DNA from: Polyangiaceae bacterium
GTDB lineage: Bacteria > Myxococcota_A > Polyangia > Polyangiales > Polyangiaceae
Length of the DNA: 64,000 nt
Assembly (NCBI GenBank): GCA_033763455.1
Contig: JANRKO010000033.1
Span: 64,001 to 128,000 of the forward strand
Reading direction: 5' to 3'
The position numbers and the translations under genes are program-made. Shown one piece after another: positions 22,393-42,679 of this stretch. The stretch's first letter is position 1; each line of letters opens with the position of its first letter. Below the pieces are notes generated by a model. That model did not search any database and had not been told where the DNA came from. It worked only from the letters and a program-made list of their open reading frames with translations.

Positions 22393-23244
22393 ATGAGCCT
22401 CGTAGCGCGATCACACAAGTCCGTCCTTCACACTCTTCTCCGAGCAACCGCAAGCGCAGGTCTACTGGCCGTAAGTCTTCCCGCGACCCTGGCGGGTTGT
22501 TCCTCGTCCGATAGCGGCAACGGCGGCAATGGCGGCGGCGGTGGTGCTGACCCTGGCACGGGAGACAAGACCGGTCTGCAGGTCTATCTCAAGCTTGACG
22601 AGAGCAGTATCGGGGCAGGACCGAAAGATACCGCCGGCAAGGTGACAGCCACGTATGGCGCGGTTAAGCCGACGGTCAGCGTGACGGCCGCCACGGTGAC
22701 TTTTGCTAATCCAGCGGCTCTAGAGTTCAAGGGCACGGAAACCGTAGAAATCCCGGCGTCTGACAACCTGAAGTGGACAGGCACCGAGAGCTACTCAATG
22801 TCGCTGTGGGCATTCCCTAAGGCTATGCCGCCCGCCAATAATTTCGCCGCTCTTCTGTCCAACAATCCCGGCGGAGAAAACGGCAACTACTGTGGTATCT
22901 ATATCCATAGCGCGGGCACCTGGTCCTTTGAGTCCAACGGTTACTTCCGACCCAACCCGGAGGTCCTCAGCGCGTCGCCGGTTGTCCTCAACAAGTGGCA
23001 GCATATCGTGATCGTGAACAACGCCATGGCTGGTAGCCAAACCATCTACGTGGATGGGGTGCCCGGATCTACCGTGCTCGCTCGGGCGAACGCCAACTGT
23101 GAGAGCTCCGCCACCTTCAGCATCGGCGCCAAAGACGGCGATGGCTATGTAGGCCTCATCGACGACGTACGTATCTACGGCCAAGCGCTCACCGAAGCTC
23201 AGGTGAAGGAGCTGAAGGACGGAGCCGAGAACATCACGCCGTAA
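22393..23244 (+). CDS. Lipoprotein with LamG/concanavalin A-like lectin domain
   Basis: GGGAG before ATG 22393; lipobox LAGC; Gly linker; YSMSLW, WQHIVIV, IYVDG and GLIDDVRIY..ALT. Confidence 0.88.
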   Translation: MSLVARSHKSVLHTLLRATASAGLLAVSLPATLAGCSSSDSGNGGNGGGGGADPGTGDKTGLQVYLKLDESSIGAGPKDTAGKVTATYGAVKPTVSVTAATVTFANPAALEFKGTETVEIPASDNLKWTGTESYSMSLWAFPKAMPPANNFAALLSNNPGGENGNYCGIYIHSAGTWSFESNGYFRPNPEVLSASPVVLNKWQHIVIVNNAMAGSQTIYVDGVPGSTVLARANANCESSATFSIGAKDGDGYVGLIDDVRIYGQALTEAQVKELKDGAENITP

Positions 23245-23320
23245 CCCGCCCGGCGGCACCTGTCCTCACGCCGCGCAGTTGCGTGTCGGTTCAATCGCGT
23301 TGCCGTCCATTTGATCAGTC

Positions 23321-23362
23321 CGGCAGTACCTCGGTGCACTTTATGGCACCGAGGTATTGTCG
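23321..23362. terminator. 17-bp stem-loop between convergent genes (terminator or part of a structured RNA)
   Basis: cggcagtacctcggtgc / gcaccgaggtattgtcg with 2 G-U pairs on the + strand and an 8-nt loop. Confidence 0.55.
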
Positions 23363-23533
23363 TATTTGGAGTAAGGGTACAGCTAGAGGTGAGTGCACCC
23401 TGCCATTGGGAGAACGTGGTTGCGCGACGCAGTGCCGAAATCGATCGCACAAAATGCCGCAGCCGGTAGCCAAGCAGAGTGCGATCCGGGGTGGCTGTGC
23501 GGTAGGCCACCTCGGACGGCACACACCCACGCG

Positions 23534-24535
23534 CTAGCGCAAACGCTCAACGAGTGCGGCAAACCAAGTGGCTCCCATGATTTCGTACCCTACGTCGTTT
23601 GGGTGGTAGTCATCGACCATGGTTTCAGCGCTTGGTCTGCCGGCGAGGGCAGCGTTCATATTCACGTACGCGATGTGCATCCCGGAGGCTGCGCGAGAGG
23701 CCACAAGGTTTGGGATCGCTTCGTTGTAGGCGGCGATCCCGGCCTGAAGCCCCGCGTCCGGGTTCGTGAGCGGAATGATCTGTGCCACTAGGATGAACGC
23801 CTCGGGTGCTTGGGCTGAGATCTGATCGATAAGCCCAGAAAGGTCGCTCGGCCTGGGCCGATCTGTCTGCTGCTCCTCAGCATCATTGGTCCCGATATGC
23901 AGGAGAATAACATGAGGCTTGTTGGCCTGGAGGGAGGCGCTTGTCAGGGCTTGAAGCTGAGCGATGGTGTAGCCGCTGTGACCTTCGTGCGCTTGGGGGA
24001 AAGGGACGGAATCAACAGTGCTTGGACCATTTGGCTCCCCAGATCCAACGAACGTTATTGCCTTGCCGGCTTCGGTGGCAGCGCGAAAAAGAGAGAGCCT
24101 ATAGCCGGCTTTGTGAGTCGACCCGACTCCAAACGTTATAGAATCCCCGAGCGGCAGGACCCTGCATGGAAGCCCGGCGCCGGGGCACGCCTGATAAGCC
24201 GAAGCACCACCCACAACTCCCTCGGAGCCCCCGCTTCCGCCAAGGCTCGCTCCACCGCCACTTCCAGTTCCTCCGGCACCCAGCGTCCCGGATGGAACTC
24301 CTCCCGTTCCTACTCTACCCGTCTGCACCTGTGCGCTTCCACCGAAACCAACGGATGCAGAGCCCCCTGCACCGCCGCTCGCGGCTATCGGCGCGTTCCC
24401 ACCCAGCCCGAGAGAAGACCCTCCCCCCTGCTGGCTCTGCGTGAGCGCAAGGCGAGGTGTGGCCGTTGGATCCCCGCAGCCCATGAGCAGCTGAACCAGG
24501 AGGAACATTGCCGCGATGGAGCGTGACCACGCCAA
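23534..24535 (-). CDS. SGNH/GDSL hydrolase lipoprotein (CE3-like carbohydrate esterase)
   Basis: Lipobox LMGC; Gly/Ser linker; blocks PLGDSIT, HEGHSG, HIGTND and DDYHP. Confidence 0.9.
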   Translation of the reverse strand: MAWSRSIAAMFLLVQLLMGCGDPTATPRLALTQSQQGGGSSLGLGGNAPIAASGGAGGSASVGFGGSAQVQTGRVGTGGVPSGTLGAGGTGSGGGASLGGSGGSEGVVGGASAYQACPGAGLPCRVLPLGDSITFGVGSTHKAGYRLSLFRAATEAGKAITFVGSGEPNGPSTVDSVPFPQAHEGHSGYTIAQLQALTSASLQANKPHVILLHIGTNDAEEQQTDRPRPSDLSGLIDQISAQAPEAFILVAQIIPLTNPDAGLQAGIAAYNEAIPNLVASRAASGMHIAYVNMNAALAGRPSAETMVDDYHPNDVGYEIMGATWFAALVERLR

Positions 24536-24552
24536 CGAAGAGAAGCAGGTGG

Positions 24553-26001
24553 TTACGACAAGAGCTCCGGCAGGGGGCCCTTACTCGGAACCATAAAGCC
24601 CTGCCCATCGGCATGCACGCCAAAGCCTGCTGACGGCGCACCAAGACCTTGGCCCATAGCGAGCAGCGCATCTTGAAAGCCAATCTCTGCGGAGCCTGGG
24701 TAGCGAATGTAGCGACCATCAAGCTTAAGACCCCCGGCCTTGCCAACCAGCACAAATGGCATGCGCAAGTGGCGAGAATGATGCGTCTCCCCATTGTCAC
24801 TCACGAGCATCGCCAACGCGTTGTCGAACAAGGTGCCATTGCCCGACGGGATGGTCTTGAGAGCGTCAAGTGTTGCGGCAACCATGCCGCTCATCCAAGC
24901 ATACACGCCGGCAATTACGGGTCCGTTGATCGGCTGATCCATGTGCCCAACATCACCAAGGCTTGTGCCATCCATACCATCGAGCGGCGTGCCGACGCGG
25001 AGCTTCGCTAGATCTGGCCCAAAATCGTGAGAATCTCCGCATCCGATATCGACCCCCATCACATTCGTCATGCCGCAGGTAAGCGCAATGCTCGCCATGG
25101 CGTTGAGCGCCTCGAGGCCGGCCACAGGTTCACCGGCTGCTCCAGCTGTGGGTGCGGTACCGCCTGTGCACGTGAGGTTTGCAGCGGCACTAAGGCTCTT
25201 TTCCTGTGCTTCAACCACGGCAAGGTACTTATCTAATTTCGCGCGCTCCTCACCCGCAAAATTCACCTTCAACCGATCCAAATCGTAGCGCAAGCCTTCA
25301 AAGATCAACCGATTCTTGACCGACGGTGTTCCCATCCCCGAAGCCTGCGTCATCGCCGTACCAAACAAGTCCTTGTAGAGCAGGGCTGGGCTCTGAAAGG
25401 AATCGATAGGCTGATTGGGACCACCAGCAAAGAGCATGGGCTTCATGTCTTTATCGACGTGGCTTGAAACACCGATAAGCACTGACTTTCTCGGTGTTCC
25501 CGCACCGATAGTATTGGCCAAATGCTGATCGTAGGTGATCCCGCCTGGCGTTACATTGTCGGGATCGGAGCCAGGCACGCAACTTAACGCCATATAGCCT
25601 AGACCGTGGCCCCCATCTTCACCCTTCCTTGGGTGGTTGCGGAGGCCATCCACCATCACCAACTGATTCCGGTAGGAGGCCTCCAGAGGTTTGAATGCAG
25701 CCGGCAGCGTGTATTCGGAAGAAGTCGCACTGATAAGTTTCGAGTTCGACGGCGACCCGGGCTCCTGCTGATTTTCTGGGGTCGGCTCGGGAAATTCCTT
25801 AGGTGTGAAGACCCAATAGGGGTTGATGCCATTGCAGGCCATCCAGAACATTGCAAGCTTCCTCGGTGCGTCTTGGCCACGAGCTTCACGAATGAGGTTG
25901 GAGGCGAGCGGAGCTAAGAGCGCAGCGCCCATTCCGAGCCCCATTTTCTCTACGAAAGACCGACGGCTGAAGGCGACTGACCTGCGGGAATTATCGATCA
26001 T
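24553..26001 (-). CDS. DUF1552 family protein, Tat-exported (cassette 1)
   Basis: SRRSF Tat motif; NG, T.DQ.LA, P..LY..LFG, KLD.YL, AL.CG.TNV, TLFDN and P.VL.G..GG features. Confidence 0.85.
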   Translation of the reverse strand: MIDNSRRSVAFSRRSFVEKMGLGMGAALLAPLASNLIREARGQDAPRKLAMFWMACNGINPYWVFTPKEFPEPTPENQQEPGSPSNSKLISATSSEYTLPAAFKPLEASYRNQLVMVDGLRNHPRKGEDGGHGLGYMALSCVPGSDPDNVTPGGITYDQHLANTIGAGTPRKSVLIGVSSHVDKDMKPMLFAGGPNQPIDSFQSPALLYKDLFGTAMTQASGMGTPSVKNRLIFEGLRYDLDRLKVNFAGEERAKLDKYLAVVEAQEKSLSAAANLTCTGGTAPTAGAAGEPVAGLEALNAMASIALTCGMTNVMGVDIGCGDSHDFGPDLAKLRVGTPLDGMDGTSLGDVGHMDQPINGPVIAGVYAWMSGMVAATLDALKTIPSGNGTLFDNALAMLVSDNGETHHSRHLRMPFVLVGKAGGLKLDGRYIRYPGSAEIGFQDALLAMGQGLGAPSAGFGVHADGQGFMVPSKGPLPELLS

Positions 26002-26013
26002 GGTAACGCTCCT

Positions 26014-27831
26014 TTAGTAGCTCCGCTTGAGGAAGGAATCGGAGGCCAGAAGCTCCGCAACGAACTCCAAATAACTTCCAGCTGGCACATACGCATCTTG
26101 GGCTTTCTTGAGGCTGCAGCTATCAAACGCCGTGGCAGAACGCCCCGAAAAGTACTGAAAGCCGTTAACCATCACGCACTGCTCAACGCGCTTACTGCCT
26201 CCCAACAAAGCCGAAAGCTCCACCGCATCCTTGAACTTTCCTGAAGCATCCCCAACGTCCACCAGAGTGCCGCTGCCATCAATGGGCTTGCCCTTGTCTA
26301 CCGTTCGGTAGGTGCCGATGGTGTCGTATATCTCGAATGCGAGCCCTGCTTCGTCGAGATTCGCGTGGCACGGCTTGCAGGACGTGTTTGCTTGGGCGTG
26401 AACCGCAAGGCGCTCGCGCATCGTGAGGGTCGTAGTATCTCCGAGTGGCGGCACGCCCTCAATTGGGACCGCTGGCACACCTCGGCACAGTATCTCAGTA
26501 TTCACAAACTTACCGCGACGCACGGGCAACGTGTCATCTCGCTTGGCCAACGCACCCATCAGCGCGGGGTGAGTAAGAAAACCCGATCGCTGCCCAGCAG
26601 GAGCCGCAGCCTTCATGTAGGGTTGCCCCTCTTGGGGACCGCCGGTCTGTCCGAACACAGCGGCCGTTGAGCAGTCGAAGAAAGTATCCGTTGTCGTGAA
26701 CAATGACCGAACAAACCCATTCGAGCCATTCGAAGCATACACACTGTCCACCAATGCCTGCGCCTGCGGAATTAGCTGCATCCGATTGTAGTGGCACGTA
26801 GCCACTTCGCCGGGCAGGATCATATCCGCCGCCTTTGGCACCGCCTGGATGCTCGGCAACTCAAAGTACTCCATCACGAAATTCCTTGCGTTAACCGAGG
26901 ACGGTGCCGACAACAGACGCTGGGCCTGTTGTTTGATCTGATCTGGGGTGCCAAGGGTACCATTGGTAGCTGCATCCCAGAGTGGCTGATCGGGCGGACC
27001 TCCGGTGAGCGCATAAGCCATGGAGGTGGCTGTTTCGAAGGGGGTGAGCACGGCCACTCCGGCCGTCGGCGTTGTCGCCCCGATCTCTGGGCGGAACAGG
27101 AACTGGGGAGCTAATAACATGCTCTGAAACGCCAACGCCAATGCACCGTCCGCGCCCAGCTCAGCGACGGCGGCCGCATCGGTCGCAAACTTGGTCACGT
27201 AGTGATCCTTCTCCTCCTGCGTAAGTGGCCTACGAAATAGGATCGCACCGCGATCGGCGAGCACCGTTGCCGCACATGCGGCAGAATTATCAGTGGCCCA
27301 GCAACTCCCGGGTTTCACTCGCGCGACGAGGGCTTGCGCCGAATCCCACGCGGCGGGAAGAGCCGCCCGGAACTCGGATTCACCGATGCTCAAGACGCCC
27401 GACTCAGTACTGTATTTACCCCCGGCAGGCTGCAGCGGCACCTTGAGTTCCGGCGGAAGGGCGGGAATCAGTACACTCGCATCTGCCGGTCGCCCATTGA
27501 GCGCCGCGGATACAGAAGCCGCGTACTGAGCTGGATTCAGCCTCCAAACGCGACGGGGCGGTGGTGCCTCAGCGGAAGTACTGCAGGCAAAGGGGTTGTC
27601 TATGGTGAGCGGGGGAACGACTGCCGGAGCTCCACCTGTACCTGGGGTGCTGATGCTGCCACCACTGCTCACTGATGCGCCGCCCACCGCGCTATTAGTC
27701 GACTGAGTGCCGCCTGCCGCGTCACCTCCGTTGCTTGCCGTATTAGACCGGGTACCACCCGCCCTTTCCACGCTGGAGGTGCAGGCTCCGGATAGCAAGG
27801 CGACACAAAACGTAGTTAGCAGATGACGCAT
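26014..27831 (-). CDS. DUF1592/DUF1588-family (PSD/PSCyt-type) lipoprotein with one CxxCH heme motif (cassette 1)
   Basis: Lipobox SGAC; RLN..QY, FRRPLT, P.FLFR.E, PPD, PVRRG.F, T.RERL..H, CKPCH and YD.IG.YR. Confidence 0.88.
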   Translation of the reverse strand: MRHLLTTFCVALLSGACTSSVERAGGTRSNTASNGGDAAGGTQSTNSAVGGASVSSGGSISTPGTGGAPAVVPPLTIDNPFACSTSAEAPPPRRVWRLNPAQYAASVSAALNGRPADASVLIPALPPELKVPLQPAGGKYSTESGVLSIGESEFRAALPAAWDSAQALVARVKPGSCWATDNSAACAATVLADRGAILFRRPLTQEEKDHYVTKFATDAAAVAELGADGALALAFQSMLLAPQFLFRPEIGATTPTAGVAVLTPFETATSMAYALTGGPPDQPLWDAATNGTLGTPDQIKQQAQRLLSAPSSVNARNFVMEYFELPSIQAVPKAADMILPGEVATCHYNRMQLIPQAQALVDSVYASNGSNGFVRSLFTTTDTFFDCSTAAVFGQTGGPQEGQPYMKAAAPAGQRSGFLTHPALMGALAKRDDTLPVRRGKFVNTEILCRGVPAVPIEGVPPLGDTTTLTMRERLAVHAQANTSCKPCHANLDEAGLAFEIYDTIGTYRTVDKGKPIDGSGTLVDVGDASGKFKDAVELSALLGGSKRVEQCVMVNGFQYFSGRSATAFDSCSLKKAQDAYVPAGSYLEFVAELLASDSFLKRSY

Positions 27832-27919
27832 AATATTACCGCCCTTGGCACAGCAAGCATTCGCCCGCTCCTAGCAACTGTGGGTACGCGTCAGATTAGC
27901 ATTCTCCGATTGCACCCGA

Positions 27920-27936
27920 CCTTACAAGCCACGCGC
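27920..27936 (-). promoter_or_regulatory. Putative regulator site GCGCGT-ggct-TGTAAGG (copy 1)
   Basis: About 90 bp upstream of the cassette 1 ATG; matches three other copies in this block. Confidence 0.55.
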
Positions 27937-27987
27937 CTATTCGGGCCGTACTTAATACTCGGATTTACGCAGCGGATCGCTGTCTGT

Positions 27988-29724
27988 TCAAGAGCGAGGA
28001 GGCGGAGTCATTTCAGAGAACGCCGTGTCGGCCACTGCATAAGCAATGCCTCGGCCTTTGCGCTCGATGCGACAAATACCATCCGAAACCAGCTGCTGGA
28101 GCGCCGCTTGCACCGTCCGCAATGGAATGGAAGTAGCTTTGGAGGCCGTTAACGCAGAGATTACACCCATCCGCGAGATTACCGCCAACACCGCAGTGGA
28201 GAGTGGCTGTGAGCAACGGGCATCGGGTACCACCAAGAGATCCGCGGTAAGTTGCAGCTTCAACGAGTTACCTAGTCTAACAACCTCGCCACGCGCACCG
28301 AGCTCTTGTCGCACGCGGTGCACCAATACATCCAAGGCCCCCTGGTGGCGCGCCGCTGAGAATGCGAAGCCGTGCACTACGCGAAAGAAATCCTCGCGTG
28401 AAAGACCATCTTTGTCGGCCAGCGAAAGCGCGGCGATGGCGGCGCGAGTGCGCCCGCCTCGGCGTTTTGTGTCAGCCATTACGGGCTCAAATGCCGAGAG
28501 CTCCGTCAGCGCATCGGGGCCGAAGAGGGGCAGCCCACGACGCAGCAAGCGCTGCGGCTTCCGAGCTCTTCCCGCGATTACAATCGCGAAGGGACCTGCG
28601 CTAGGCTCCTCCGTCGTGCACACCCCGTGAAGGCCCGCTGGCGGCAGAGAAATCTCTCCCGCCAGCCAGGGCTTGGCTTCAGCCACAGGCAGTGCCGCGG
28701 GATCCATCAACGAAAGCAGCAGACACGCCTCGCGGTGACCCGGCTGAAAGCCAGAGGTAAAGGTGAGCATTGCGTGGACAGCCGCATCGAAGGCAGCGCG
28801 TGCGCCAACGCTGGCACTTTCGAGTGCGTTGTTGAGAGATATCGCAGCCTGGGTACTGCGAGAACCAGCTTCGCCGCTCAGGCGCTGAAGCATGCCGCTG
28901 GCCATTTCCGGGCCACCCGCCAAGAGTAGCTCCCACCCGAGCCAAGGGCCGAGTGCCTGAGGAGCGACGCCCGAAAGGGCAATAAGGATGCGGGAAGCGG
29001 CGTACGGTTTATCAGCATAACGACGAAACCGGGCGAGCACGAGATTGGCGAGACATACCCAATAGGGGAGGCCTTCAGAGGTGGCCATCAGCGACGCTCG
29101 ACGCGCAAAGCCGTGTGCTTCGGTCACCGCACCGAGCTCCAAAGCTACCAGCGCTCGAAGCGCCGTGACCTCTATGACCAGTGGCCCTGCCCCCTGTGCC
29201 GACACGAGCGCAAAAAGCGCCTTGAGCTCCTCCTCCAGCCCGGCAGTTTCGCCGCGCATGAACCTCAGCCACACCTGTGCGACGCTCAACCAGGAGGCTA
29301 GACTTGGCTCAGACAGGTGGCCGTGAAACTTCACCCAGCGTTCGAGGGCGATATCATCGAACGCAAGCACTGCCGAACGCTCGGCGAGCATTGCCATATG
29401 TGAGTACCCGAGCCGCACGTCCGCGTCTTCTGATACGGGGAAAGCATCCGGCTCGGAAGCAGCAACTTCACGGGGATAGCTGGCGAAGAGCCAGGCGCTA
29501 TGCTTCAGGTTCTTCTGCCACAGCGAGGCGGCAACGCTCCCATCTGCTTCTAACTCCTGGCACAGCGCGGAGACTTCAGTTGAATCGCCGGCACGAATCT
29601 TCCCGAGAACCTCAAGGATTCGGAGAGTAAGGGCTTCAGAAGGCGGCACACGTGTTACGCTGCAGGATAGCCGCGGCGCAGTGCGAAGACCAGCGTCCCG
29701 AGATACACTCTTGGTTGCCCCCAT
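27988..29724 (-). CDS. Putative transcriptional regulator: helical/TPR-like N-terminus and two C-terminal winged-helix domains
   Basis: LSREDFFRVVHG...ALDVLVHRVRQELG resembles OmpR/Trans_reg_C; ISALTASKATSIPLRTVQAALQQLVSDG.C.IERKGRGIAY is a second wHTH; start uncertain. Confidence 0.7.
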   Translation of the reverse strand: MGATKSVSRDAGLRTAPRLSCSVTRVPPSEALTLRILEVLGKIRAGDSTEVSALCQELEADGSVAASLWQKNLKHSAWLFASYPREVAASEPDAFPVSEDADVRLGYSHMAMLAERSAVLAFDDIALERWVKFHGHLSEPSLASWLSVAQVWLRFMRGETAGLEEELKALFALVSAQGAGPLVIEVTALRALVALELGAVTEAHGFARRASLMATSEGLPYWVCLANLVLARFRRYADKPYAASRILIALSGVAPQALGPWLGWELLLAGGPEMASGMLQRLSGEAGSRSTQAAISLNNALESASVGARAAFDAAVHAMLTFTSGFQPGHREACLLLSLMDPAALPVAEAKPWLAGEISLPPAGLHGVCTTEEPSAGPFAIVIAGRARKPQRLLRRGLPLFGPDALTELSAFEPVMADTKRRGGRTRAAIAALSLADKDGLSREDFFRVVHGFAFSAARHQGALDVLVHRVRQELGARGEVVRLGNSLKLQLTADLLVVPDARCSQPLSTAVLAVISRMGVISALTASKATSIPLRTVQAALQQLVSDGICRIERKGRGIAYAVADTAFSEMTPPPRS

Positions 29725-31999
29725 GTCTGGCCCTTCGCTGGCGAAAGCTCAAAACATCTCGCCCTACGTACCGCTCGCCAACCTCGCCGCCGGTGGCATG
29801 GCGGAGGTAACGCTTTGCGTGAAGCGCGATGGGCGCTTTGAGCGTTTGTACGCGCTCAAACGACCATTGCCTCAGTTTCGGCTCGACCCGGGCTTCCGGG
29901 AAATGTTCCTCGACGAAGCGCGGGTGGCTGGAGTTGTTCACCATGCCAATGCCGTAGGTGTTGTTGATTTCGGGGAGGATCAGGACGGGCTCTTTCTGGC
30001 CATGGACTTCGTCGAAGGAGTCTCAGTGGCTCATTTGCTCTCGGCAGTAATGCCCAAAACGAGCCTTCTGCCTGTCCAAGCTTGCGTGACGATTGCCTCT
30101 CAGGCAGCCCGCGGCTTGCACGCAGCCCACGAAGCGAAAACTGCCGATGGCCACCCCCTACATATCGTTCACCGGGATGTATCACCTAGGAATATACTTG
30201 TTGGCTACGATGGGGTTGTTCGAGTGGCCGATTTTGGGATTGCGAAGGCACTCGGTAACGCGTTTCGCACCTCTACTGGGATCCTTAAGGGCAGCCTCGG
30301 GTACATGTCGCCAGAGCTCCTCAAATTCCAAACGCCCGATAGGCGCTCGGATCTTTTCTCCCTCGGGATCGTCCTTTTTGAATTATTAACCCGTGAGCGC
30401 CTCTACACGCATACCGAATCCGCGATCGCTCCGCACCGAATTCTGAACGAAGCGCCGCCCGATGCCGGAGAATTTCGCGAAGATCTTCCCCCAGAGCTGG
30501 TGGAGCTGCTCTTCGAAATGCTGGCTAAAAACCCTGATGATCGCCCTCCAACCGCGGAACAGGTTGCTCAACGCTTGGAGAGTATTCTTCATCTGCTTGC
30601 AGCCGAGGAGGGCGCTTTCGATCTTTCTAGCTTTCTTGCCGAGCAATTTGGCGAAGAACGGGAAAAGCTTCGTTCCGATATCCAACGGCAGCTCGCGTCG
30701 CTGCGCGAAGCCCCCAACCAGTCCCGGGAAGAAGCGCGCCCCGAACAACTGGACGCCGTATCGCAGGTGTCCTTGCACCGACGAAGCTGGGCAAAGCCAT
30801 TTATCGGGATAGTCGCCCTCTCCCTCGTCGGGGTGGTCGCGTGGGGCGAGATGGGCGATAAAGGAAAGCCCATAGAGGGAGCTACTCAGCGAGCAATGGC
30901 TCCAGCAAGCAAGCCGAGGAACCCCGAGGCGCGCGGAGTGCAGAACGTTTGGGCGGGCGCCTGGCATTCCTGTGCCACCCGTCAAGAGCAGTTGTTTTGT
31001 TGGGGCAAAAATGGAGATGGCCAGCTTGGAGAAGGAACCTATGGGGATCGAGGAGAACCGTACCCGGTGCCGCTGCACGATGTGAGCATGGCTTCGGGCG
31101 GCAACTTCCACACTTGTGCCGTTAAGCAAGGTGGGCAGTTGTACTGCTGGGGGCGAAACACCGAGGGGCAGCTGGGGTTGGACCCAGCAAAGGTACCCAG
31201 CGCTCCCCAGCCAACCCCTTTGCCAACGATGACCGACGTCATCGCCTTCGATGCGGGGGACTTCGCGAGCTGCGCCGTACGACGCGACGGCAGCGTTTGG
31301 TGTTGGGGTAAACTATTACCGGAGGGCCAACCCCCGCCACCGGCATTCTCGCCGCGCGGCGCTCCTCGTCGCATGCCAGGACTCGATGACGCCATAGCGG
31401 TCAGCGTGAGCGAATCACATGCTTGCGCGCTTCTGCGGGCGGGCACGGTGCTGTGCTGGGGCTCCAACACGCACGGGGAGTTGGGGAGTACACAGCAGAA
31501 CTTCTCGCCCACCCCGCTCGCGGTGCCGGGGGTAAGTGGGGTAATCCAAGTGGGCACGGGAGCTGGTTTTACCTGCACGCTCTCCTCACGGAATCGGGTG
31601 TCCTGCTGGGGCGACAATTCGACTGGCCAGCTGGGGATCGGAGCGGCTACCCGTGTAGCGCGAGAGCCTCGTACGATCGAACACCTCGATGGGGTCAGCC
31701 AGATCTCCGTCAGCGACGCCTGGGCATGCGCACGGCACGCTTCAGACCAAGTCAAATGTTGGGGCAACGGGACTTGGGGCAATCTAGGGAACGGCGGGCT
31801 GGACATGCAGTACACACCCGTGAGGGTTCAGCAACTAGAGGACGCTATTTGGCTCACCACGGGCAGTCAGCACGCATGCGTCCGTCGCAAGACCGGAGCA
31901 TTGGCGTGTTGGGGGCTCAACTCCAGCGGACAGCTGGGGGACGCAAGCGGAGAGTCGCGCACGATTCCAGTGAGCCCCACGACGCCGCCGCCGCTTTGA
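29723..31999 (+). CDS. Membrane Ser/Thr protein kinase with extracytoplasmic RCC1/BLIP-II repeats
   Basis: GGMAEV, ALKR, HRDVSPRN, DFG, YMSPE, SDLFSLG; TM segment FIGIVALSLVGVVAW; seven H.CA...CWG.N..GQLG-type repeats. Confidence 0.93.
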   Translation: MSGPSLAKAQNISPYVPLANLAAGGMAEVTLCVKRDGRFERLYALKRPLPQFRLDPGFREMFLDEARVAGVVHHANAVGVVDFGEDQDGLFLAMDFVEGVSVAHLLSAVMPKTSLLPVQACVTIASQAARGLHAAHEAKTADGHPLHIVHRDVSPRNILVGYDGVVRVADFGIAKALGNAFRTSTGILKGSLGYMSPELLKFQTPDRRSDLFSLGIVLFELLTRERLYTHTESAIAPHRILNEAPPDAGEFREDLPPELVELLFEMLAKNPDDRPPTAEQVAQRLESILHLLAAEEGAFDLSSFLAEQFGEEREKLRSDIQRQLASLREAPNQSREEARPEQLDAVSQVSLHRRSWAKPFIGIVALSLVGVVAWGEMGDKGKPIEGATQRAMAPASKPRNPEARGVQNVWAGAWHSCATRQEQLFCWGKNGDGQLGEGTYGDRGEPYPVPLHDVSMASGGNFHTCAVKQGGQLYCWGRNTEGQLGLDPAKVPSAPQPTPLPTMTDVIAFDAGDFASCAVRRDGSVWCWGKLLPEGQPPPPAFSPRGAPRRMPGLDDAIAVSVSESHACALLRAGTVLCWGSNTHGELGSTQQNFSPTPLAVPGVSGVIQVGTGAGFTCTLSSRNRVSCWGDNSTGQLGIGAATRVAREPRTIEHLDGVSQISVSDAWACARHASDQVKCWGNGTWGNLGNGGLDMQYTPVRVQQLEDAIWLTTGSQHACVRRKTGALACWGLNSSGQLGDASGESRTIPVSPTTPPPL

Positions 32000-35372: not shown

Positions 35373-35389
35373 ACGCAACGAATGTAAGC
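35373..35389 (+). promoter_or_regulatory. Putative regulator site ACGCAA-cgaa-TGTAAGC (copy 2, more degenerate)
   Basis: In the divergent region between cassette 2 and the beta-helix gene. Confidence 0.4.
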
Positions 35390-35542
35390 TCTCGCGGTTG
35401 CAAGAATCTCGCAAAGCAGGAAAGCGGCGCCGCCCGGCTTCGGTACTTTCGAGCTATTGAGGTTGTTCCCGAGCTCCACCCCGAGTTGACACCACCAGGA
35501 AGGGGCACCGAATGCTAAGGCTCAAATGAAGGTTGCTGTCGG

Positions 35543-37495
35543 ATGAATCGAACACTGCTCCTGCTAATCTGCTTGTGCCTGGTCTCCTGTTCTTTGCCCC
35601 CTCCTGTGCCCAAAGATGGCGCGTGGCGAGTGGGCCGGGCTGAGCAACCGCCACACACCGCTTCCCCCGTTGCCATGGAAGGCGCTGAGCAGGCGCGTGA
35701 TGTGCTGTTCCCGGCTGATTCCAACGTGGTGAACGTGCGCCTCCCCCCCTATTTTGCGAAGGGCGATGGCGTCACGGACGACACGCGCGCGATCCAAAAG
35801 GCCCTTTCGGACCACCCCAATCAGGACAGCATCATCTACCTGCCAGCCGGTACTTACCTGATAAGTGATACCTTGCGCTGGGGCTCAGGAAAGCACGGAG
35901 GAGAAGCCCAGAAGCGAACCATCCTACAGGGTCAAGGAGCGCATCGGACGCGGCTCCAACTTGCCGATAATTCCCCGCGCTTTCGAGCCTTGGAGCGGGC
36001 GCCAAACGGGGATGCCCAATCCAAAGCCATGATCTGGACGGGGGAACGGCCCGCACAACGTTTTCGCAACGGGATTCGCGACATTACCGTTGATATCGGG
36101 CTCGGCAACCCGGCGGCCACAGGTATCCAATATATTGCCAACAATCAAGGAAGCCTCAGAAATGTGGTGGTGCGTTCACGAAGCGGTGGGTTTGTGGGGC
36201 TCGATCTCGGCTACACGGACGAGCAAGGGCCGTGCCTCATCAAGAATGTCGAAGTCATAGGTTTTGCCACAGGCGTTCGCACTCGATTCGCGGTGGACAG
36301 TGTGACGCTTCAGCAGATCCGCGTTCAGAACCAGTCGGAAGTGGGCTTTCTGAACGACGGCCAGTCCATCAGTTTGGAGTCCTTCAGTAGCACGAACTCA
36401 GTGCCAGCCATCAAGAACATGAGCCGATCGAGCCTTCTGGTACTTATCGGTGCCGAGCTCGATGGCCAGGGCAGCCGTGGCCCCGGCATCGAAAACTCGG
36501 GCTACGCACTCCTACGCGACGTGCGTTCAACGGGCTACGATGCAACGCTCAAGGATAAAGGCAGTAGCACGACGCTCCGAGGCAACATCCGAGAGTGGTT
36601 GAGCCATCCGGCAGACAAGCTGTTTGCAGATTCACCCAAGGAAACGCTCAGGCTTCCCATCCGTCAGACGCCGCTCCGGCCTGATATCCCACTCAGCGAA
36701 TGGGCGTCTCCTTTGGAGTTTGGTGCGATTGCGAACGACAACAAGGACGACACCGAGGCTCTTCAGCGTGCCGTGGATTCAGGAAAGCGTGTCGTCTATC
36801 TGCCCCGAAACGGGCTAACTCTAGACGGGACACTGCACATCCGGGGTAACGTCGAGGTCTTCGATGGCTTGGAGGCGCTGCTGCTGGGCACAGGCACGCT
36901 TTCCTTTGAGCCCACCGCCGGACGAACGCAGTTCTTCGAACGAACCGATCTTCGTTACGAGAAGGTCAACATCATTCATGCTGGGCAAGGAGAGCTGGTG
37001 ATGAGCAGTGTCACCTCAGACGGCGGGAGGTTCGATTACCGAGGGCGGGGTGCACTTTTTCTTGAGGACGTCGTCATGGGAGATCTGCTCGTTCCGAAGG
37101 GAGGCCAGGTATGGGCTCGGCAGCTGAACATCGAATCCCATGGGAGCACCCGGCTAAGGAACGACGGCGGCAGCGTGTGGGTTTTGGGGTACAAAACCGA
37201 ACAGCATGGGATTGTGGCCGAAACGCTGCACGGTGGAACCACAGAAATTCTTGGTGGCCTCGTCTACTCGCAGGGCCAGCCCAAAGACACTCCCATGTTC
37301 GTGATCGACAACGCGGCATTCTCGGCTTCCATCGCTGAGGTTTCGTGGAACTTTCAGCGTCAGGGCTATCACACCTTAGCTCGTGAAACGCGCGGCCCGG
37401 TTACACGAGAGCTCGCAGGCGGCGCGCGCGCGGGGCGCCTTTGGCATGCGAACGACGCATCTATGGTCCTGCTCTACTCGGCCTATTCACGCTAA
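35543..37495 (+). CDS. Lipoprotein with tandem pectate-lyase-3-type beta-helix domains (GH55-like architecture)
   Basis: Lipobox LVSC; AKGDGVTDDT.AIQ.A...IYLPAGTYLIS; second GAIAND.KDDT.ALQ.A..VYLP; RQLN.E and LG.KTE. Confidence 0.88.
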   Translation: MNRTLLLLICLCLVSCSLPPPVPKDGAWRVGRAEQPPHTASPVAMEGAEQARDVLFPADSNVVNVRLPPYFAKGDGVTDDTRAIQKALSDHPNQDSIIYLPAGTYLISDTLRWGSGKHGGEAQKRTILQGQGAHRTRLQLADNSPRFRALERAPNGDAQSKAMIWTGERPAQRFRNGIRDITVDIGLGNPAATGIQYIANNQGSLRNVVVRSRSGGFVGLDLGYTDEQGPCLIKNVEVIGFATGVRTRFAVDSVTLQQIRVQNQSEVGFLNDGQSISLESFSSTNSVPAIKNMSRSSLLVLIGAELDGQGSRGPGIENSGYALLRDVRSTGYDATLKDKGSSTTLRGNIREWLSHPADKLFADSPKETLRLPIRQTPLRPDIPLSEWASPLEFGAIANDNKDDTEALQRAVDSGKRVVYLPRNGLTLDGTLHIRGNVEVFDGLEALLLGTGTLSFEPTAGRTQFFERTDLRYEKVNIIHAGQGELVMSSVTSDGGRFDYRGRGALFLEDVVMGDLLVPKGGQVWARQLNIESHGSTRLRNDGGSVWVLGYKTEQHGIVAETLHGGTTEILGGLVYSQGQPKDTPMFVIDNAAFSASIAEVSWNFQRQGYHTLARETRGPVTRELAGGARAGRLWHANDASMVLLYSAYSR

Positions 37496-37565
37496 CACTT
37501 AACGTAACGCGGCCTCGCGAGGTTGAAGCGCGAGCCCCGGCCCCCCGGGCGCGAACAAATAGAGG

Positions 37566-38915
37566 CTAAGCTAGCTCCGGCAAGAGCTTGGTTCCGTAGA
37601 CTCCAAACTTCGTGGCGGGCACACCGACAATATTGAGAATGGTAAGCAGCAGATCGTCGTAATTGGCGCGCTGGGCGGATGCATACCGAACATGCTGACC
37701 AAGCTTGAGCTTGCCACCAGCGTGCCCAGCCACAATCACCGGAACATTGGAGAAATCATGGGAGACGCCCAAGCCGCACTCGCTAGCGAAGAACACCAAT
37801 GAATTGTCGAGTAGGTTCGTGGCACCCTGCATCGCCGCCTTCATTAGGCGCAAACCGTACGCAAACTGCTCCATTTCGTCGACAACAATCTTGGTTTGCG
37901 CTTCTATCCCCTCTGGGGATTCAAGGTGGGAGATACCATGGTGGCCATCCAGCTCATCCACCAAATTCAGCCATGGAAACTGGCGCTTATTGCCTCGGCT
38001 GGCCAGCATGAAGCTGCCCACGCGGGTGAACCCACACGCGAACGCCATCACCTGCAGACGGATCAAGAGCTGAGCGTGCTCGTTTGAGTAGGCCCCCGAC
38101 ATGTTGTCAATGTCAGGTGCCGACCCTCCGAGCCGACCATCGAAGGTCATCTCGCTGTTGCATTCGGCAGTGCTAGTAATCGGCAAGGCCAGCCGAGCCT
38201 CCAGTTCTCGGACAGAAGTGAGGTATTCGTCCAGCCTGTGCTTGTCAGCGTGGCTTATCTGCGCGCTCAAATCCGTGACATCCACCCTCACGTAGTCCAA
38301 GACGCTTTGACGATAGTCCGCAACCCCAACTGCCGGTTTTCCGAAAAGCTTCTCAAACAAGACGGCCGCGTCACGCTCCGCAGGCACCGGAGTAGCTCCG
38401 GATTGCCAGGAGATCTGGTCGGCAACTTCCCCACGCAAGCCGCCGAGTGCCACCGGGAGTGACTTGAAGCGACTCATCTTCCCAAGCTCGCCAGCTGCCA
38501 CTTGATCCATCGATGCGAACTCAACAGTGGTGGCACTTGCGAGCGAACCTCCTGTGGCGAAAGATGCATGCCCACGCTGATGAGCATCGTTGTTGATGCT
38601 CTGATTTCTCAACGCCTCCTGCTTGCGCAGGCCCTGGATGATACTGAAATCCTGTCTGAATTCGGCTATTGGCACCAGGCTTCGGGTGAGCTCATAGGCG
38701 CTCCCGGTGGCCACCGGCCACCACGCATCAGGGACTACGCCGTTTGGGATAAAGAATGTTAATAGGTTAACCGGAATATTCGTCTGGCCGTGAGCCGTTC
38801 GCAGCAGGCCATTGTCCGTCAACATGGCATCCAGAATGGGCAGCCCGAGGCACACGCTACTTCCGGCGCCAAAACCTCGGAGCAAATGTCGGCGCGAAAC
38901 GCGAATCGGCTTCAT
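37566..38915 (-). CDS. DUF1552 family protein, Tat-exported (cassette 3)
   Basis: SRRHLLRG Tat motif; LP.LDAM, PNG, SMDQ..A, SVLD, RLDEYLTSVRELE, HHGISH and LLDNS. Confidence 0.92.
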   Translation of the reverse strand: MKPIRVSRRHLLRGFGAGSSVCLGLPILDAMLTDNGLLRTAHGQTNIPVNLLTFFIPNGVVPDAWWPVATGSAYELTRSLVPIAEFRQDFSIIQGLRKQEALRNQSINNDAHQRGHASFATGGSLASATTVEFASMDQVAAGELGKMSRFKSLPVALGGLRGEVADQISWQSGATPVPAERDAAVLFEKLFGKPAVGVADYRQSVLDYVRVDVTDLSAQISHADKHRLDEYLTSVRELEARLALPITSTAECNSEMTFDGRLGGSAPDIDNMSGAYSNEHAQLLIRLQVMAFACGFTRVGSFMLASRGNKRQFPWLNLVDELDGHHGISHLESPEGIEAQTKIVVDEMEQFAYGLRLMKAAMQGATNLLDNSLVFFASECGLGVSHDFSNVPVIVAGHAGGKLKLGQHVRYASAQRANYDDLLLTILNIVGVPATKFGVYGTKLLPELA

Positions 38916-40624
38916 GGCTGCACCGCCGTGGCCGCGGAAGTGAACCGGAAAGCATCGCTCGTTACCATAGTCAAAATCATGTCCTTCAGGTTGAAGTTGG
39001 TGGTTTTGAGCGCTGTGCTCGCCTGCGCTACAGAACAGGCGTCTTGCGCACTGACCTCCCTTCCATAGGCAAATTGAAAAGCCTTCGTGGCGACGCAGTC
39101 CGCAACTTCGGGCGCGGCTTGGAGTAGAGCAGCGAGCTCTTTGGGCCCCACGAAGCCTGGATCCCCCCCAAGCCCGTACGCTTGCCCGGCACCCGTCAGC
39201 GCCTCCCCACGACTGCCCGTCGCATGAAATCGACCAATCTCGTCATACTGCTCAAGACCAAACCCCAAGGGCTCAAGGAGCTGGTGACACGCTGCACACT
39301 CCGCCGAACTTCGGTGGCTTGCCAAGCGTTCCCTCACCGTCAAACTGGGATCATTGGATACCGCCGGGATCATCGCGGGTGGACCTGGAACCGGGATCGT
39401 ACAAAGAAACGCATTCCTTAAGAACTTGCCACGCAGAATCGGGGTCACCGTCTCAGAGGCCCCCGGCACACTTGCCGTAAGGAAGCCCGGTTGGGTTAAG
39501 AGCCCTGTTCGCTCTTCCGGGAGCTCAATTTTTGCCAGGTCCTTACCTGTAGGCGGCAACCCGTATATAGGCGCCAGGTTATCGTCTACGTAGGAGTAGC
39601 GAGCGCTCAGTGCATCCAGAAGATTCGCGCCCGCCGGTACCCAAAAATCCCTCAGAAATAGGTTTACCTCAGCGATCGCCGAGGCCTTTTTGGCGTCCGA
39701 CCACTCTGGGAATTGCGTTAAGGGCCTCGGTACCACCTTCACCTCATCGAGCTCCAGCCATTTGCTCAGGAGGCGCCCCAGCCCTTCACTGGCACGCGGA
39801 TCCTCCAGCATCGCGCGCGCGGCCCCTTGCACCTGGGCGATGTCGCCCAACTTGTCCTCGAGGGCGAGCTCGGTGAGGTAGGCGTCTGGGTTGGTCCCCC
39901 AAATCAGGAACGACAAGCGCGTCGCAATCTCGGCACTGCTGAGCTTGTTCCAGGTGGCAAGCTTACCAGGCAAAGTCCCATCTTCGACACGAAAGAGAAA
40001 GCGAGAAGACGAAAGGATGCCCGCTATTATCAGCTTCGCGGGACGGTAGAGATCCGGCTCCGGCCCAAGCGGAGTTGAAGCCAACGCGTCTAGATTGTCG
40101 ATTTCGTTCTTGCTGAGTGCCTGACGATAGAGCGCAGTTCCAACAGAACTCGCAAGAAACTTGTAGCAAGACTCTTTAGCAAGATCACAGAGGGCGAGCG
40201 CGGCTCGGCGCTCTGGAGTGCTGACCGCGACATCCGCCACGTAGAACGCCGCCTTCATGTACTTCTCAAGATGGGTGGCCGACACCACGCCGGGGGGCGC
40301 AAGGATCCTCGATTCACCCTCCGGTTCAAGCAGGGCCAAGGCCTGTTCAGCCTCCGAGTCAGCCAGGTGCAGCACATCTCGAACAGACCGCATAAACTCT
40401 TGGTTGCTGAGACGCCGTAGGCCACTCGGCCCCGGCGTGATCGCGCCGCCACACGCCGGTACCTGCATCGGCGGTGAGGTGTCTGTGTCTCGAGGTACCT
40501 GAGCGGCCTCCCCCTTAGATCCCGCCGCACCACCGCCTGAACCGCTGCAGCCAAGGCTCAGTGCGCCAAGTAGCCAGGCGGCACTGCCAACACGCGTTAA
40601 CCCGAGCCTCTGTCGGTAATCCAT
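38912..40624 (-). CDS. DUF1592/DUF1588-family lipoprotein with CxxCH (cassette 3)
   Basis: Lipobox SLGC; LRRLSN.E, FLFRVE, ATRLSF.IW...PD, R.GLLT, PILRG, CAACH and LGFGLEQYD.IG. Confidence 0.9.
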   Translation of the reverse strand: MDYRQRLGLTRVGSAAWLLGALSLGCSGSGGGAAGSKGEAAQVPRDTDTSPPMQVPACGGAITPGPSGLRRLSNQEFMRSVRDVLHLADSEAEQALALLEPEGESRILAPPGVVSATHLEKYMKAAFYVADVAVSTPERRAALALCDLAKESCYKFLASSVGTALYRQALSKNEIDNLDALASTPLGPEPDLYRPAKLIIAGILSSSRFLFRVEDGTLPGKLATWNKLSSAEIATRLSFLIWGTNPDAYLTELALEDKLGDIAQVQGAARAMLEDPRASEGLGRLLSKWLELDEVKVVPRPLTQFPEWSDAKKASAIAEVNLFLRDFWVPAGANLLDALSARYSYVDDNLAPIYGLPPTGKDLAKIELPEERTGLLTQPGFLTASVPGASETVTPILRGKFLRNAFLCTIPVPGPPAMIPAVSNDPSLTVRERLASHRSSAECAACHQLLEPLGFGLEQYDEIGRFHATGSRGEALTGAGQAYGLGGDPGFVGPKELAALLQAAPEVADCVATKAFQFAYGREVSAQDACSVAQASTALKTTNFNLKDMILTMVTSDAFRFTSAATAVQP

Positions 40625-40831
40625 AGTGTTCCTTTCTGAGACTATTCCCGAGCGGTGCGCGGGCGGGCGTCGACCGTTGTGTGCAGCCTATCCCTTTTGT
40701 CTAACTTCGAGAATGGACAATACGATTTCAGCTTCAAGCTCGCGACAGTCGACGAGCACGTCAATCCACAACAAATACAGCTTCACATTGTATTTAAGGT
40801 TTCATTTACCCGCCACCCAGCAACTCCGTGT

Positions 40832-40848
40832 GCGCATGATCTGTAAGG
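40832..40848 (+). promoter_or_regulatory. Putative regulator site GCGCAT-gatc-TGTAAGG (copy 3)
   Basis: In the divergent region between cassette 3 and the DUF2341 remnant, about 90 bp before ATG 40939. Confidence 0.55.
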
Positions 40849-40938
40849 CCAAAGTGGCTGATCTTCGATTGCCAGTGACTGTATCTTTCGTTCGCGTCCT
40901 CGACGAGGAACACTCCATCTCGCCGCTCTGGTAATTCT

Positions 40939-41481
40939 ATGGAGGGTGGGATGTCCCCGAGCACAGGCGGTGGCACCGGCGGCGCGGAGCTGGTGGAACT
41001 CTCAATGGAAACGCCGACGCGCCATCGTTGTAAGCGGTCCGCAGCACGAACCGCTTAGCGACTTTCCCGTACCGGTGCGCCTCACCACGGCCAATTTTGA
41101 CTTCCAAGCCGCCGACCCCAACGGTGCGGACGTCGTTACCTTCTCCGGCTGGGTGAAGCCACGTGCGGGAGCGGACGAACAAAACGGCATCATCGCGATC
41201 GGAGGAGACCTTCGCTTCGACTCCGCGGGGCACCCAGGGTTCTCCATAGGCTTCGATGGGCCCAATTTGGTAATGATGGCGTTTCCTATGCGCGGCCAAC
41301 CTACCTCTCTCACGCTTCCGCACTAGGCTCGGACTGCGTGGGGGGCCACGATTTCGCGGAGGCGACCTTCGATGAATTCAGACTTCAAAAGACCAGTCGC
41401 TCGGCAGCTTGGTTTGAAACCGAGTTCACATCCATGAGCTCCCCCACCTTCGCGGTGGTGGGCCCAGTCGAAGTTCCCTAA
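40939..41481 (+). pseudogene. Fragmented DUF2341/LamG gene
   Basis: Gly linker (MEGGMSPSTGGGTGGA) in one frame; WWNSQWKRRRAI...L.DFPV.VRL....DF......GAD then TFSGWVK in a second frame; C-terminal FDEFRLQKTSRSAAWFETEF...PTFAVVGPVEVP back in the first frame; most of the middle is missing. Confidence 0.7.
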
Positions 41482-41503
41482 GCTTCGCAGAAGGGGCACC
41501 AGC

Positions 41504-42580
41504 TCAGGGCCCGCCGCCCGCGCCGCCCGCGCCCGCGCCGCCCATGGCGAGCGGAGGGCAGGTAGGACTGGTCGGCTTTACCGGCACTGCGCTCACCAAA
41601 GCGCTCGCTGGCACGGTTGCAAAAGTGTTCTCGGAAGGCAGCGTCCAACGGATCTCCCAATGATCAACACCCAAGTTAGCTCGATGAAAGAAGTCAAAAT
41701 AGTAAAGATTATCTTTAATCATCGGCACCGCTTGGGATTTTTGCCCGGGAACGTTAAATGTGTCAGGTGACGTGTAGTAATCAACCGCAACCACAGCGCG
41801 CGCCTGGGTTCTGACTGAAACATTTTGCCCCGGCGGCACCACGGTGCTGATGTACAACTCGCCACCGTTTGAAGAAGTTAACCAAAAAATGAAATTGCCG
41901 GTTGCTGGTGCCTTGATAAACCCACGCACGCGTTCTCCATAGTTGTCGCCGTAATCGGTTGGGATCAGGGGGTCCTCAGGCGAGTGGCTCTTTAGACCAT
42001 TGACCATTTGGCCAACCAGCGTGGGGTTGTCGGGGAAGTTGGGAGAGAAGGCACAGTTGGTAAAGGAAGCTACTTGGTCGTGGTTGCCCATGTAGCCAGG
42101 CAGAGGTACATCCGCCCAGAATTCGCGGAGAGCTGTTCCCGGCGAACCCAAGCCCACCACACCACCACACCCCAATTCAGGCCCACATCCGTTCTCTCCA
42201 CTATCACGCCTCGTCAGGTTCACATTTCCAGGATCGGGTAGAGTGCCTCCCGAAGAACTCCCTCCTGACAAGGTTCCACCAACTCCACCGACGCCGCCCT
42301 GTGCAGGAGCACCTCCCAACGAAGCGCCACCCACCGATGCCCCTCCAGAGCCACCGCTTGGAGCGGCTCCCCCAACTCCTGTTTGATCGCCCCGACCCCC
42401 AACGCCGGCCGCAGGCGCCCCGCCGGAAGCTACCGTTTGGCTCCCACCGCTCCCGCCTTGCCCCTCAGAGGGATTCAGGCCCCCGTAGCGCGAGCCGTTG
42501 CTCGCCGACGGATCAGCACACGCATACACCACTGCAACGGCCATCGATCCACCAACCAACAACTTGAATGCGCGCGCCAT
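41504..42580 (-). CDS. Gly-rich lipoprotein with PA14 domain
   Basis: Lipobox VYAC; DNYGERVRGFIKAPATGNFIFWLTS..GGELYIS and W..P......VP...L. Confidence 0.82.
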   Translation of the reverse strand: MARAFKLLVGGSMAVAVVYACADPSASNGSRYGGLNPSEGQGGSGGSQTVASGGAPAAGVGGRGDQTGVGGAAPSGGSGGASVGGASLGGAPAQGGVGGVGGTLSGGSSSGGTLPDPGNVNLTRRDSGENGCGPELGCGGVVGLGSPGTALREFWADVPLPGYMGNHDQVASFTNCAFSPNFPDNPTLVGQMVNGLKSHSPEDPLIPTDYGDNYGERVRGFIKAPATGNFIFWLTSSNGGELYISTVVPPGQNVSVRTQARAVVAVDYYTSPDTFNVPGQKSQAVPMIKDNLYYFDFFHRANLGVDHWEIRWTLPSENTFATVPASALVSAVPVKPTSPTCPPLAMGGAGAGGAGGGP

Positions 42581-42662
42581 GTTACCGCCAAGGTATGCTT
42601 CGGACTGTCGGGCGAGGCTGGCCCCGCCGCTTTCGACTATTGCTCAAACCACCACACGCGTC

Positions 42663-42679
42663 CCTTACAAGAGATGCGC
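42663..42679 (-). promoter_or_regulatory. Putative regulator site GCGCAT-ctct-TGTAAGG (copy 4)
   Basis: About 83 bp upstream of the PA14 gene ATG. Confidence 0.55.

Follow-up and report, generated by a model that had tools for sequence, protein, structure and literature searches.

In planctomycete genomes, genes for a set of specific cytochromes carrying PSCyt3 (PF07627) and PSD2-5, the group III of He et al. (2017; PMC5615132), adjoin genes of the DUF1552 family (PF07586). The available text of that study notes fusions to carbohydrate-binding modules (CBM; LamG and PA14) and suggests a role in carbohydrate degradation, so that both the pairing and the carbohydrate idea are already in print. 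For a parallel module, PSCyt2/PSD1 cytochromes with DUF1501, the pairing, CBM fusions and a possible carbohydrate role were described by Kamneva et al. (2012; PMC3542564). Here we describe three cytochrome-DUF1552 pairs in a window of 64,000 nucleotides, the whole stretch analysed, from a Polyangiaceae bacterium (assembly GCA_033763455.1, contig JANRKO010000033.1, positions 64,001 to 128,000). The pairs lie in a block at window positions 22393..42679 of a 6.56 Mb assembly (59% GC, 93.7% complete); A denotes the DUF1592-type member of each pair and B the DUF1552 member. Domains and adjacency are identical to those described for the group III genes. The window A proteins differ in being short single-haem lipoproteins with no PSCyt1 or CBM, the glycan modules here are neighbours rather than fusions, some 75 pairs per genome occur genus-wide, and AraC/XylR genes are adjacent to many of them. 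With the DUF1501 modules as described the pairs share the combination of a cytochrome and a twin-arginine translocation (Tat) protein, though from different Pfam families. We propose, as an evenly balanced proposition, that A and B form an exported redox heterodimer with a haem and a metal, and that its substrates are of carbohydrate type.

The polysaccharide utilization loci (PULs) of Bacteroidota combine a TonB-dependent transporter, SusC, with a glycan-capture lipoprotein, SusD. Like these, the pairs are two-gene cores present as many paralogues, which often have an AraC-type regulator of their own and glycan genes close by; unlike them, the core has no outer-membrane transporter or glycan-capture fold, and the block is no conserved unit. 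A Pfam scan of the block detected neither a TonB-dependent transporter nor a glycan-capture lipoprotein. The preliminary description of this DNA had the pairs replace SusC/D, a claim that fails, since a transporter is missing from the block and the fold of B is that of an enzyme rather than one for binding or transport. The block is an ordinary variable site. What matters is the pair family, which abounds in environmental bacteria, is not known to have a function, and through this analysis now has a predicted complex, a putative metal site and a genetically tractable relative.

The gene pairs and their relation to Cbp2D

All three pairs are encoded on the minus strand with A before B, as first described and as both sequence and Pfam matches confirm. 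A1 (26014..27831) and B1 (24553..26001) are separated by a 12-bp gap, while A2 (33536..35248) overlaps B2 (32082..33539), and A3 (38912..40624) overlaps B3 (37566..38915), at ATGA. The A2 frame is open to 35479, its lipobox making 35248 the likely start. The motif scan found a single CxxCH in every A (at 443-447 in A3) and an RRx[FL] twin-arginine motif in every B (SRRSFVEK in B1), again as claimed. Pfam families PSCyt3, PSD4, PSD5 and PSD2 were matched in the A1, A2 and A3 lipoproteins, the PSD5 score of A3 falling under the curated cut-off; PSD3 was matched in A2 and A3 and not in A1, which gives the domain order DUF1587/1595/1592/1588/1585 in the former two and DUF1595/1592/1588/1585 in A1. 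All three B proteins matched PF07586 (B1, E 7e-25; B2, E 5e-65).

The tractable relative is Cbp2D of Cellvibrio japonicus, with the architecture CBM2-X158-FN3-X183-DUF1587-X132 (Branch et al. 2021, PMC8981238). The genes cbp2E (CJA_2615) and cbp2D (CJA_2616) are both needed for insoluble cellulose, and cbp2D belongs to a set of six without which cellulose is not used; an unknown mechanism is proposed, and the six-gene set gave Escherichia coli no growth on filter paper (PMC12542752). In the supplement to that paper the hypothetical gene CJA_2617 is induced alongside cbp2E and cbp2D on cellulose, with log2 fold changes of 2.2 and 2.0, and CJA_2614 is cellulose-induced too. X132 is called uncharacterised in a Teredinibacter study (PMC10916295), and PMC6004670 and PMC2754498 merely list family members, one of them a CBM2-bearing Cellvibrio DUF1592 protein. 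A DUF1552 partner of Cbp2D or of the Teredinibacter proteins is not mentioned in the available text of PMC8981238, PMC10916295 or PMC12542752, and in the open-access literature we found no paper joining DUF1552 with Cbp2D or X132 and none naming CJA_2617 in its main text.

The DUF1587-X132 region of Cbp2D, and of Teredinibacter TERTU_2913 and TERTU_3803, as given in those sources, is nothing other than the PSD3/PSD5/PSD4/PSCyt3 body, with its single CxxCH, of which the window A proteins consist. A3 matched a starch-binding protein of Pseudoalteromonas Bsw20308 (E 4e-35) with Pfam matches to CBM26, GSDH, cytochrome c, PSD3/5/4 and PSCyt3, directly after which lies a DUF1552 gene; this strain is listed with a CBM26x4-X183-X132 protein in a CAZy-style list (PMC8981238). 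In five genomes reached via Cellvibrio, Colwellia and Algibacillus loci, a DUF1552 match was found just downstream of all 16 of the 16 PSCyt3 matches. Three Cellvibrio loci (L148, L149 and L150) have a CBM2-YceI gene (cbp2E-like), then a CBM2-YceI-...-PSD3/5/4/PSCyt3 gene (cbp2D-like), then DUF1552, the last with the His set described below intact, and the window A proteins matched the L148 A protein at E 7e-43 to 6e-26. As in these Cbp2D-like genes, DUF1552 is the next gene after each window A. Judged by sequence, A corresponds to the C-terminal DUF1587-X132 region of Cbp2D, here as a separate protein. Unlike Cbp2D, the window proteins are predicted lipoproteins with one CxxCH and no Pfam match to an N-terminal CBM2, YceI (X158), FN3 or X183. 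From the gene order in the three Cellvibrio loci we infer that CJA_2617 encodes a DUF1552 protein and that the six-gene E. coli set omits this downstream gene. Fused relatives bear CBM2, CBM26, GH5 or a sugar dehydrogenase; when long fused homologues were sought, no more than 7 proteins came up, each of about 1300 amino acids and with no CBM.

GH5-YceI-CBM2 and GH5-cytochrome-PSD fusions (L152:10773-13637; L156:6852-11801) place a cellulase domain within the haem protein or next to it. A DUF2214-like membrane protein is encoded upstream of cbp2E/cbp2D-like genes in Cellvibrio (L148:12627-13235, L149:4748-5356), and other copies (L151, L157) are followed by a gene for cytochrome b561; both are candidate membrane electron links.

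Fold, candidate metal site and predicted complex

A model of B3 (predicted local distance difference test, pLDDT, 88.8) resembles sulfatases, nucleotide pyrophosphatases/phosphodiesterases (NPPs) and alkaline phosphatases (Z 17.3, root-mean-square deviation 3.7, 268 residues aligned). The best 50 structure-match rows listed all belong to the alkaline phosphatase superfamily (Foldseek E 6e-6), to which B3 is 9-16% identical. B shares with this superfamily (S1 sulfatases, NPP/PDE enzymes, PafA and phosphoethanolamine transferases) the alpha/beta/alpha core and the C-terminal metal-ligand positions; it differs in having no CxPxR and no first-strand Asp, with His probably at the nucleophile position, and in an extra helical insertion that is predicted to bind the haem partner. 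S1 sulfatases have a C/S-x-P-x-R nucleophile motif and a first-strand Asp-Asp. Among 79 B paralogues, [CS]xPxR was present anywhere in the protein in 7, and neither this motif nor the Asp-Asp was found in conserved columns. Conserved residues, in the numbering of mature B3, were H69 (68 of the 79), D94 (78), H283 (73), H287 (78), E/D336 (70) and H343 (71), together with a Cys pair; in full-length numbering His112, His326, His330, Glu379 and His386 are all present in B3. HHalign comparison with six sulfatase-like proteins of the genome placed H283/H287, E336 and H343 on metal-ligand motifs (probability 84%). Atlas leads for B3 were all below 0.9, the nearest named look-alikes by model features being DUF1501 clusters at 0.83, which is a lead only. 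When both alignments were searched against PDB sequences, no solved homologue of A or B reached significance.

The CxxCH motif was invariant in the 79 aligned A proteins, and cytochrome c assembly genes are present in the genome. For the A3 model (pLDDT 92.6; 515 residues, unsplit), Foldseek returned nothing at E 0.001, the best Z was 5.0, and Atlas gave no outside match; such an unmatched model is no proof of a new fold. The interaction of A with B implied by the preliminary description is borne out by prediction: the A3/B3 complex scored 0.80 and the best of three controls 0.00. Among solved complexes 116 of 157 attained this mark, as did 2 of 215 mismatched pairs; these figures carry over to the present case only approximately. 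The A3/B3 runs shared at least 83% of contacts, with a partner pLDDT of at least 82, and the predicted interface brings A residues 11-162, the N-terminal DUF1587/DUF1595 region, against the helical insertion of B.

In the mechanism that we propose, A would be a lipid-anchored mono-haem c protein, haem attachment being predicted from CxxCH, and would bind the helical insertion of B through its N-terminal region as modelled. B would fold with its metal in the cytoplasm and exit by the Tat route. Its putative metal ligands are His69, His283, His287, Glu/Asp336 and His343 on the alkaline-phosphatase scaffold, where a His appears to replace the hydrolytic nucleophile. This site would oxidise or oxidatively cleave a carbohydrate-type substrate, with single electrons passing via the haem in one direction or the other; in the fused relatives, the extra cytochrome, YceI quinone-binding and pyrroloquinoline quinone (PQQ)-dehydrogenase-type domains may provide the remainder of the electron wire. 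Each copy likely has its own substrate, and many would be switched on by their own AraC/XylR regulator. A bolder extension, which we put forward tentatively and regard as doubtful, is that the pairs are an unrecognised class of carbohydrate-oxidising enzymes, with a haem c subunit of unmatched fold coupled to an alkaline-phosphatase scaffold that has been turned to redox chemistry at a four-His metal site; that the DUF1552 gene after cbp2D, predicted to be CJA_2617, is the missing catalytic subunit behind the Cbp2D/E phenotype; and that the genus holds about 75-95 substrate-specific versions. If true, this would be a new class of oxidative glycan enzymes, and A3/B3, short and CBM-free, is a simple construct for biochemistry.

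Copies, neighbours and rival readings

Genes were called with a home-made caller and grouped into families by BLAST clustering. Genome-wide there were 83 profile matches to PF07586 (DUF1552), 82 to PF07627 (PSCyt3), and 75 adjacent A/B pairs, in A-to-B order in 73 of the 75. First-look candidates, which are not copy numbers, amounted to 86-98 in the four genomes of the genus (91-98 in the three congeners) and to 0-29 in 37 other relatives; by sequence, the expansion is genus-wide. Neighbouring pairs no more than 8 genes apart were more numerous than expected (18 observed, 7.3 expected; 0 of 2000 simulations). Triples within 8 genes are borderline, at 2 observed against an expectation of 0.33 (p 0.053), and pairs run more densely on contig C45 than in the window. 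The triple in the window is mild clustering and no unique locus. Its pairs are mutually 22-28% identical and the closest paralogue of each is located elsewhere, which rules out their tandem duplication. A recent foreign origin of the block is unsupported, its GC and GC3 (third codon positions) being at genome level and no terminal repeats being seen. Across 72 pairs, similarity among A proteins mirrored that among B proteins (r 0.78; top of 2000 permutations 0.16), and A and B co-diversify.

Immediate neighbours of the pairs included 25 AraC/XylR/LacI-family genes among 158, compared with 26 among 5041 other genes (p 2e-25) and 0 among 113 controls; 28 of the 75 pairs had such a gene at most 3 genes away. 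Of the 146 immediate neighbours lying beyond the window, 17 had glycan-type domains, against 3 of 113 random controls (p 0.005), the controls being unmatched for accessory regions. The Pfam scan covered 127 of the 153 distance-1 neighbours beyond the window, omitting 7 short genes and 19 of the AraC family, the latter 19 being counted as non-glycan among the 146. PF12708 beta-helix genes were found at most 3 genes from a pair in 3 of 7 cases (background 8%), and one TonB receptor was found among the 127 scanned neighbours.

Other kinds of gene recur near the pairs. Extracytoplasmic function (ECF) sigma factors are enriched there (10 of 431 genes vs 16 of 4768). Within three genes of a pair lie all five members (5/5) of an exported family with no Pfam match, a candidate third component (L004:8005-8733, L019:1436-2311, L030:7479-8141, L042:3100-3981), and ADP-ribosylglycohydrolase-family genes were seen repeatedly (L005:2259-3740, L117:7528-9009, L120:11445-12809).

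The block was not found as a unit in three congeners (G001-G003). In these, the interval between the peroxiredoxin and DnaJ-domain genes contains a LamG orthologue and one other small gene, to which G001 adds a different pair. Orthologues of pair 2 occupy other sites in the three congeners, with different neighbours, and a GH42 gene adjoins them; the best congener matches of pair 3 are orthologues of another paralogue; and B1-like pairs are present at several other congener sites. There is a recurring local theme, in that LamG is convergent on a B gene at loci of G001 and G003, and once a beta-helix gene lies on the far side of a B1-like pair. The pair 2 orthologues (L117 11622-15150; L118; L119) have A and B on opposite strands and divergent, a rare break of the A-to-B order. 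The congener gene beside LamG (L113:7825-8865) weakly matches 'copper acquisition factor BIM1-like' (E 8e-7).

Two genes of the block that might have regulated the pairs stand head-to-head. One encodes a Ser/Thr kinase with one membrane span, near residue 355 of the called gene, and RCC1 repeats (29681..31999, plus strand; PF00069 E 1e-35, PF00415 E 4e-41); the other encodes a 578-residue helical regulator-like protein with a weak C-terminal helix-turn-helix (HTH) match (27988..29724, minus strand; HTH_41 E 0.0008, below cut-off). Homologues of the regulator occurred in 11 of the 151 genomes searched. At nine loci in seven genomes outside the genus, it was head-to-head with a closely related kinase in 7, had a separate RCC1-repeat gene nearby in 4, and had no A/B pair in the fetched flanks, some of which end at contig ends, in 8; at the single exception, L178, a pair lies 6-7 kb from the kinase and regulator. 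Kinases were not enriched near pairs (6 of 431 genes vs 79 of 4768 elsewhere), and a weak test found no motif common to the three A upstream regions beyond chance. Kinase, regulator and RCC1 repeats probably make up a signalling unit of their own. The block looks like a variable insertion site holding a patchwork of separately inserted modules, with the three pairs as old, unrelated copies collected there. The RCC1 repeats are fused to the kinase in the window (27988-31999) and form a separate gene in relatives (L177-L185).

Several findings weigh against the pairs being redox heterodimers that act on carbohydrates. The Cbp2D phenotype could stem from its other domains, and the window's copies have no CBM. 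B1 is without His at 283, and B2 has Ser replacing the acidic ligand at 336. HHalign supports the C-terminal ligands only, its N-terminal half being misaligned, and the placement of H69 at the nucleophile position would follow from secondary-structure order and the sulfatase motif. The listed interface includes no residue of the A haem motif and none of the B His set, so no short haem-to-metal path is demonstrated. Joint duplication alone could yield the mirrored similarity of A and B. Among the immediate neighbours 129 of 146 have no glycan domain, LamG genes show no clear link to pairs (3 of 15 are at most 3 genes from one; background 8%), and the AraC-family gene nearest to the block is 113 genes away. 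A Sphingobium copy is surrounded by genes for AraC, TonB receptor, cytochromes, SDR, VOC, flavin monooxygenase and Rieske proteins, of which the last four kinds point to non-glycan substrates. A liberal count of the controls, including lysozyme, transglycosylase and sulfatase, gives 6 of 113 and p 0.058. The enrichment of carbohydrate-active enzymes beside DUF1552 genes that the preliminary description connected with its proposal, assessed in this genome, is modest, seen at p 0.005 and losing significance with the liberal control. Its claim of glycan processing is plausible for the family, through the neighbour enrichment and the fusions to CBM2, CBM26, GH5 and sugar dehydrogenase, and unsupported for the block.

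These points bear on four other explanations. B may be a metal-dependent hydrolase or transferase that removes sulfate, phosphate or acyl groups from glycans, with A as its anchoring or redox-sensing subunit; all top fold matches are hydrolases or transferases, the C-terminal ligands align with a sulfatase-like family, and the haem motif lies outside the predicted interface. We think this unlikely, given that B has no formylglycine (FGly) motif or N-terminal Asp pair, that a conserved His would occupy the nucleophile position by the inferred mapping, that its CxxCH partner is invariant in 79 of 79 aligned A proteins, and that relatives are fused to extra cytochromes, YceI and GSDH. The fusions to CBM2, CBM26, GH5 and GSDH, the cbp2D phenotype as reported (PMC12542752), the XylR- and cupin-type AraC neighbours, and the GH42 gene that still adjoins the pair 2 orthologues in congeners likewise make it quite unlikely that the pair works as an exported all-purpose redox platform, serving small molecules as varied as aromatics, steroids and sugars, its glycan link here reflecting nothing more than a glycan-rich accessory pool, as the Sphingobium context, the many neighbours with no glycan domain and the differing neighbours of the pair 2 orthologues would suggest.

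The co-regulated 20-kb PUL-like system of the preliminary description, with the RCC1 kinase as glycan sensor, the regulator as the switch for all three cassettes and the pairs standing in for SusC/D, is very improbable. Each pair does have a glycan-type neighbour, A1 is the next gene downstream of the regulator and shares its strand, the L178 locus has its pair 6-7 kb off, and the LamG and beta-helix arrangements recur in congeners. A single locus of this kind is nevertheless unsupported because there are about 75 pairs genome-wide, those of the window are only 22-28% identical, the block is not conserved (pair 2 orthologues being elsewhere and divergent, and the matches of pair 3 belonging to another paralogue), and kinase and regulator occur apart from pairs in the fetched flanks of 8 of 9 loci, some ending at contig ends; the block has, besides, no shared upstream motif and no transporter. 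Hardly credible, too, is a pair that merely supplies electrons to other enzymes such as lytic polysaccharide monooxygenases (LPMOs), with B as a scaffold or metal store. An LPMO-donor role was the first proposal made for Cbp2D, and its X183 cytochrome slowly reduces LPMOs in vitro (PMC8981238). The stand-alone A proteins, however, have no X183; a search of this genome, 93.7% complete and with 75 pairs, turned up no AA10 LPMO, which leaves absence not proven; the Teredinibacter results, as reported, are inconsistent with such a role (PMC10916295); and loss of cbp2D or cbp2E is described as worse than LPMO loss (PMC12542752).

Other genes and repeats of the block

The domain assignments of the preliminary description were largely upheld by Pfam, with DUF1592/DUF1552, LamG, SGNH, kinase, RCC1 and beta-helix matches above cut-off; its PA14 domain and regulator HTH fell below. 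The glycan-type genes clustered in the block are of the SGNH, beta-helix, LamG and weak PA14 types. A LamG (Laminin_G_3) lipoprotein is encoded at 22393..23244 on the plus strand (open frame from 22255; PF13385 E 1e-22). Its orthologue stands at the same position in G001-G003 (49-51% identity), and it is an ancestral resident of the prx..dnaJ-like interval. An SGNH/GDSL esterase with a lipobox and a Gly-rich linker follows 17 bp downstream of B1 (23534..24535, minus strand; PF13472 E 2e-20). The exported, pectate-lyase-like beta-helix protein (35543..37495, plus strand; PF12708 E 4e-27) weakly resembles GH55 beta-1,3-glucanases over short stretches (PDB 5m5z and 3eqn, E about 1e-9). The DUF2341/LamG remnant, a pseudogene at 40946..41472 on the plus strand, was confirmed by tblastn; intact paralogues match it in three pieces and two frames, consistent with internal deletions. 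The PA14-like exported protein (41504..42580, minus strand; PF07691 E 0.004, below cut-off) has a Gly-rich linker and belongs to a seven-member paralogue family, one member of which has a PA14 match at E 5e-7.

An SDR gene (window 42943-43713) is also absent from the same site in congeners, so that the inserted block reaches about 43720. An intergenic repeat of about 180 bp (window 42700-42885) contains an internal hairpin with an 11-bp stem (fold z -1.0). It had no Rfam match; with 26 matches in the genome and many in congeners, it is probably a repetitive extragenic palindromic (REP)-like or miniature inverted-repeat transposable element (MITE)-like element.

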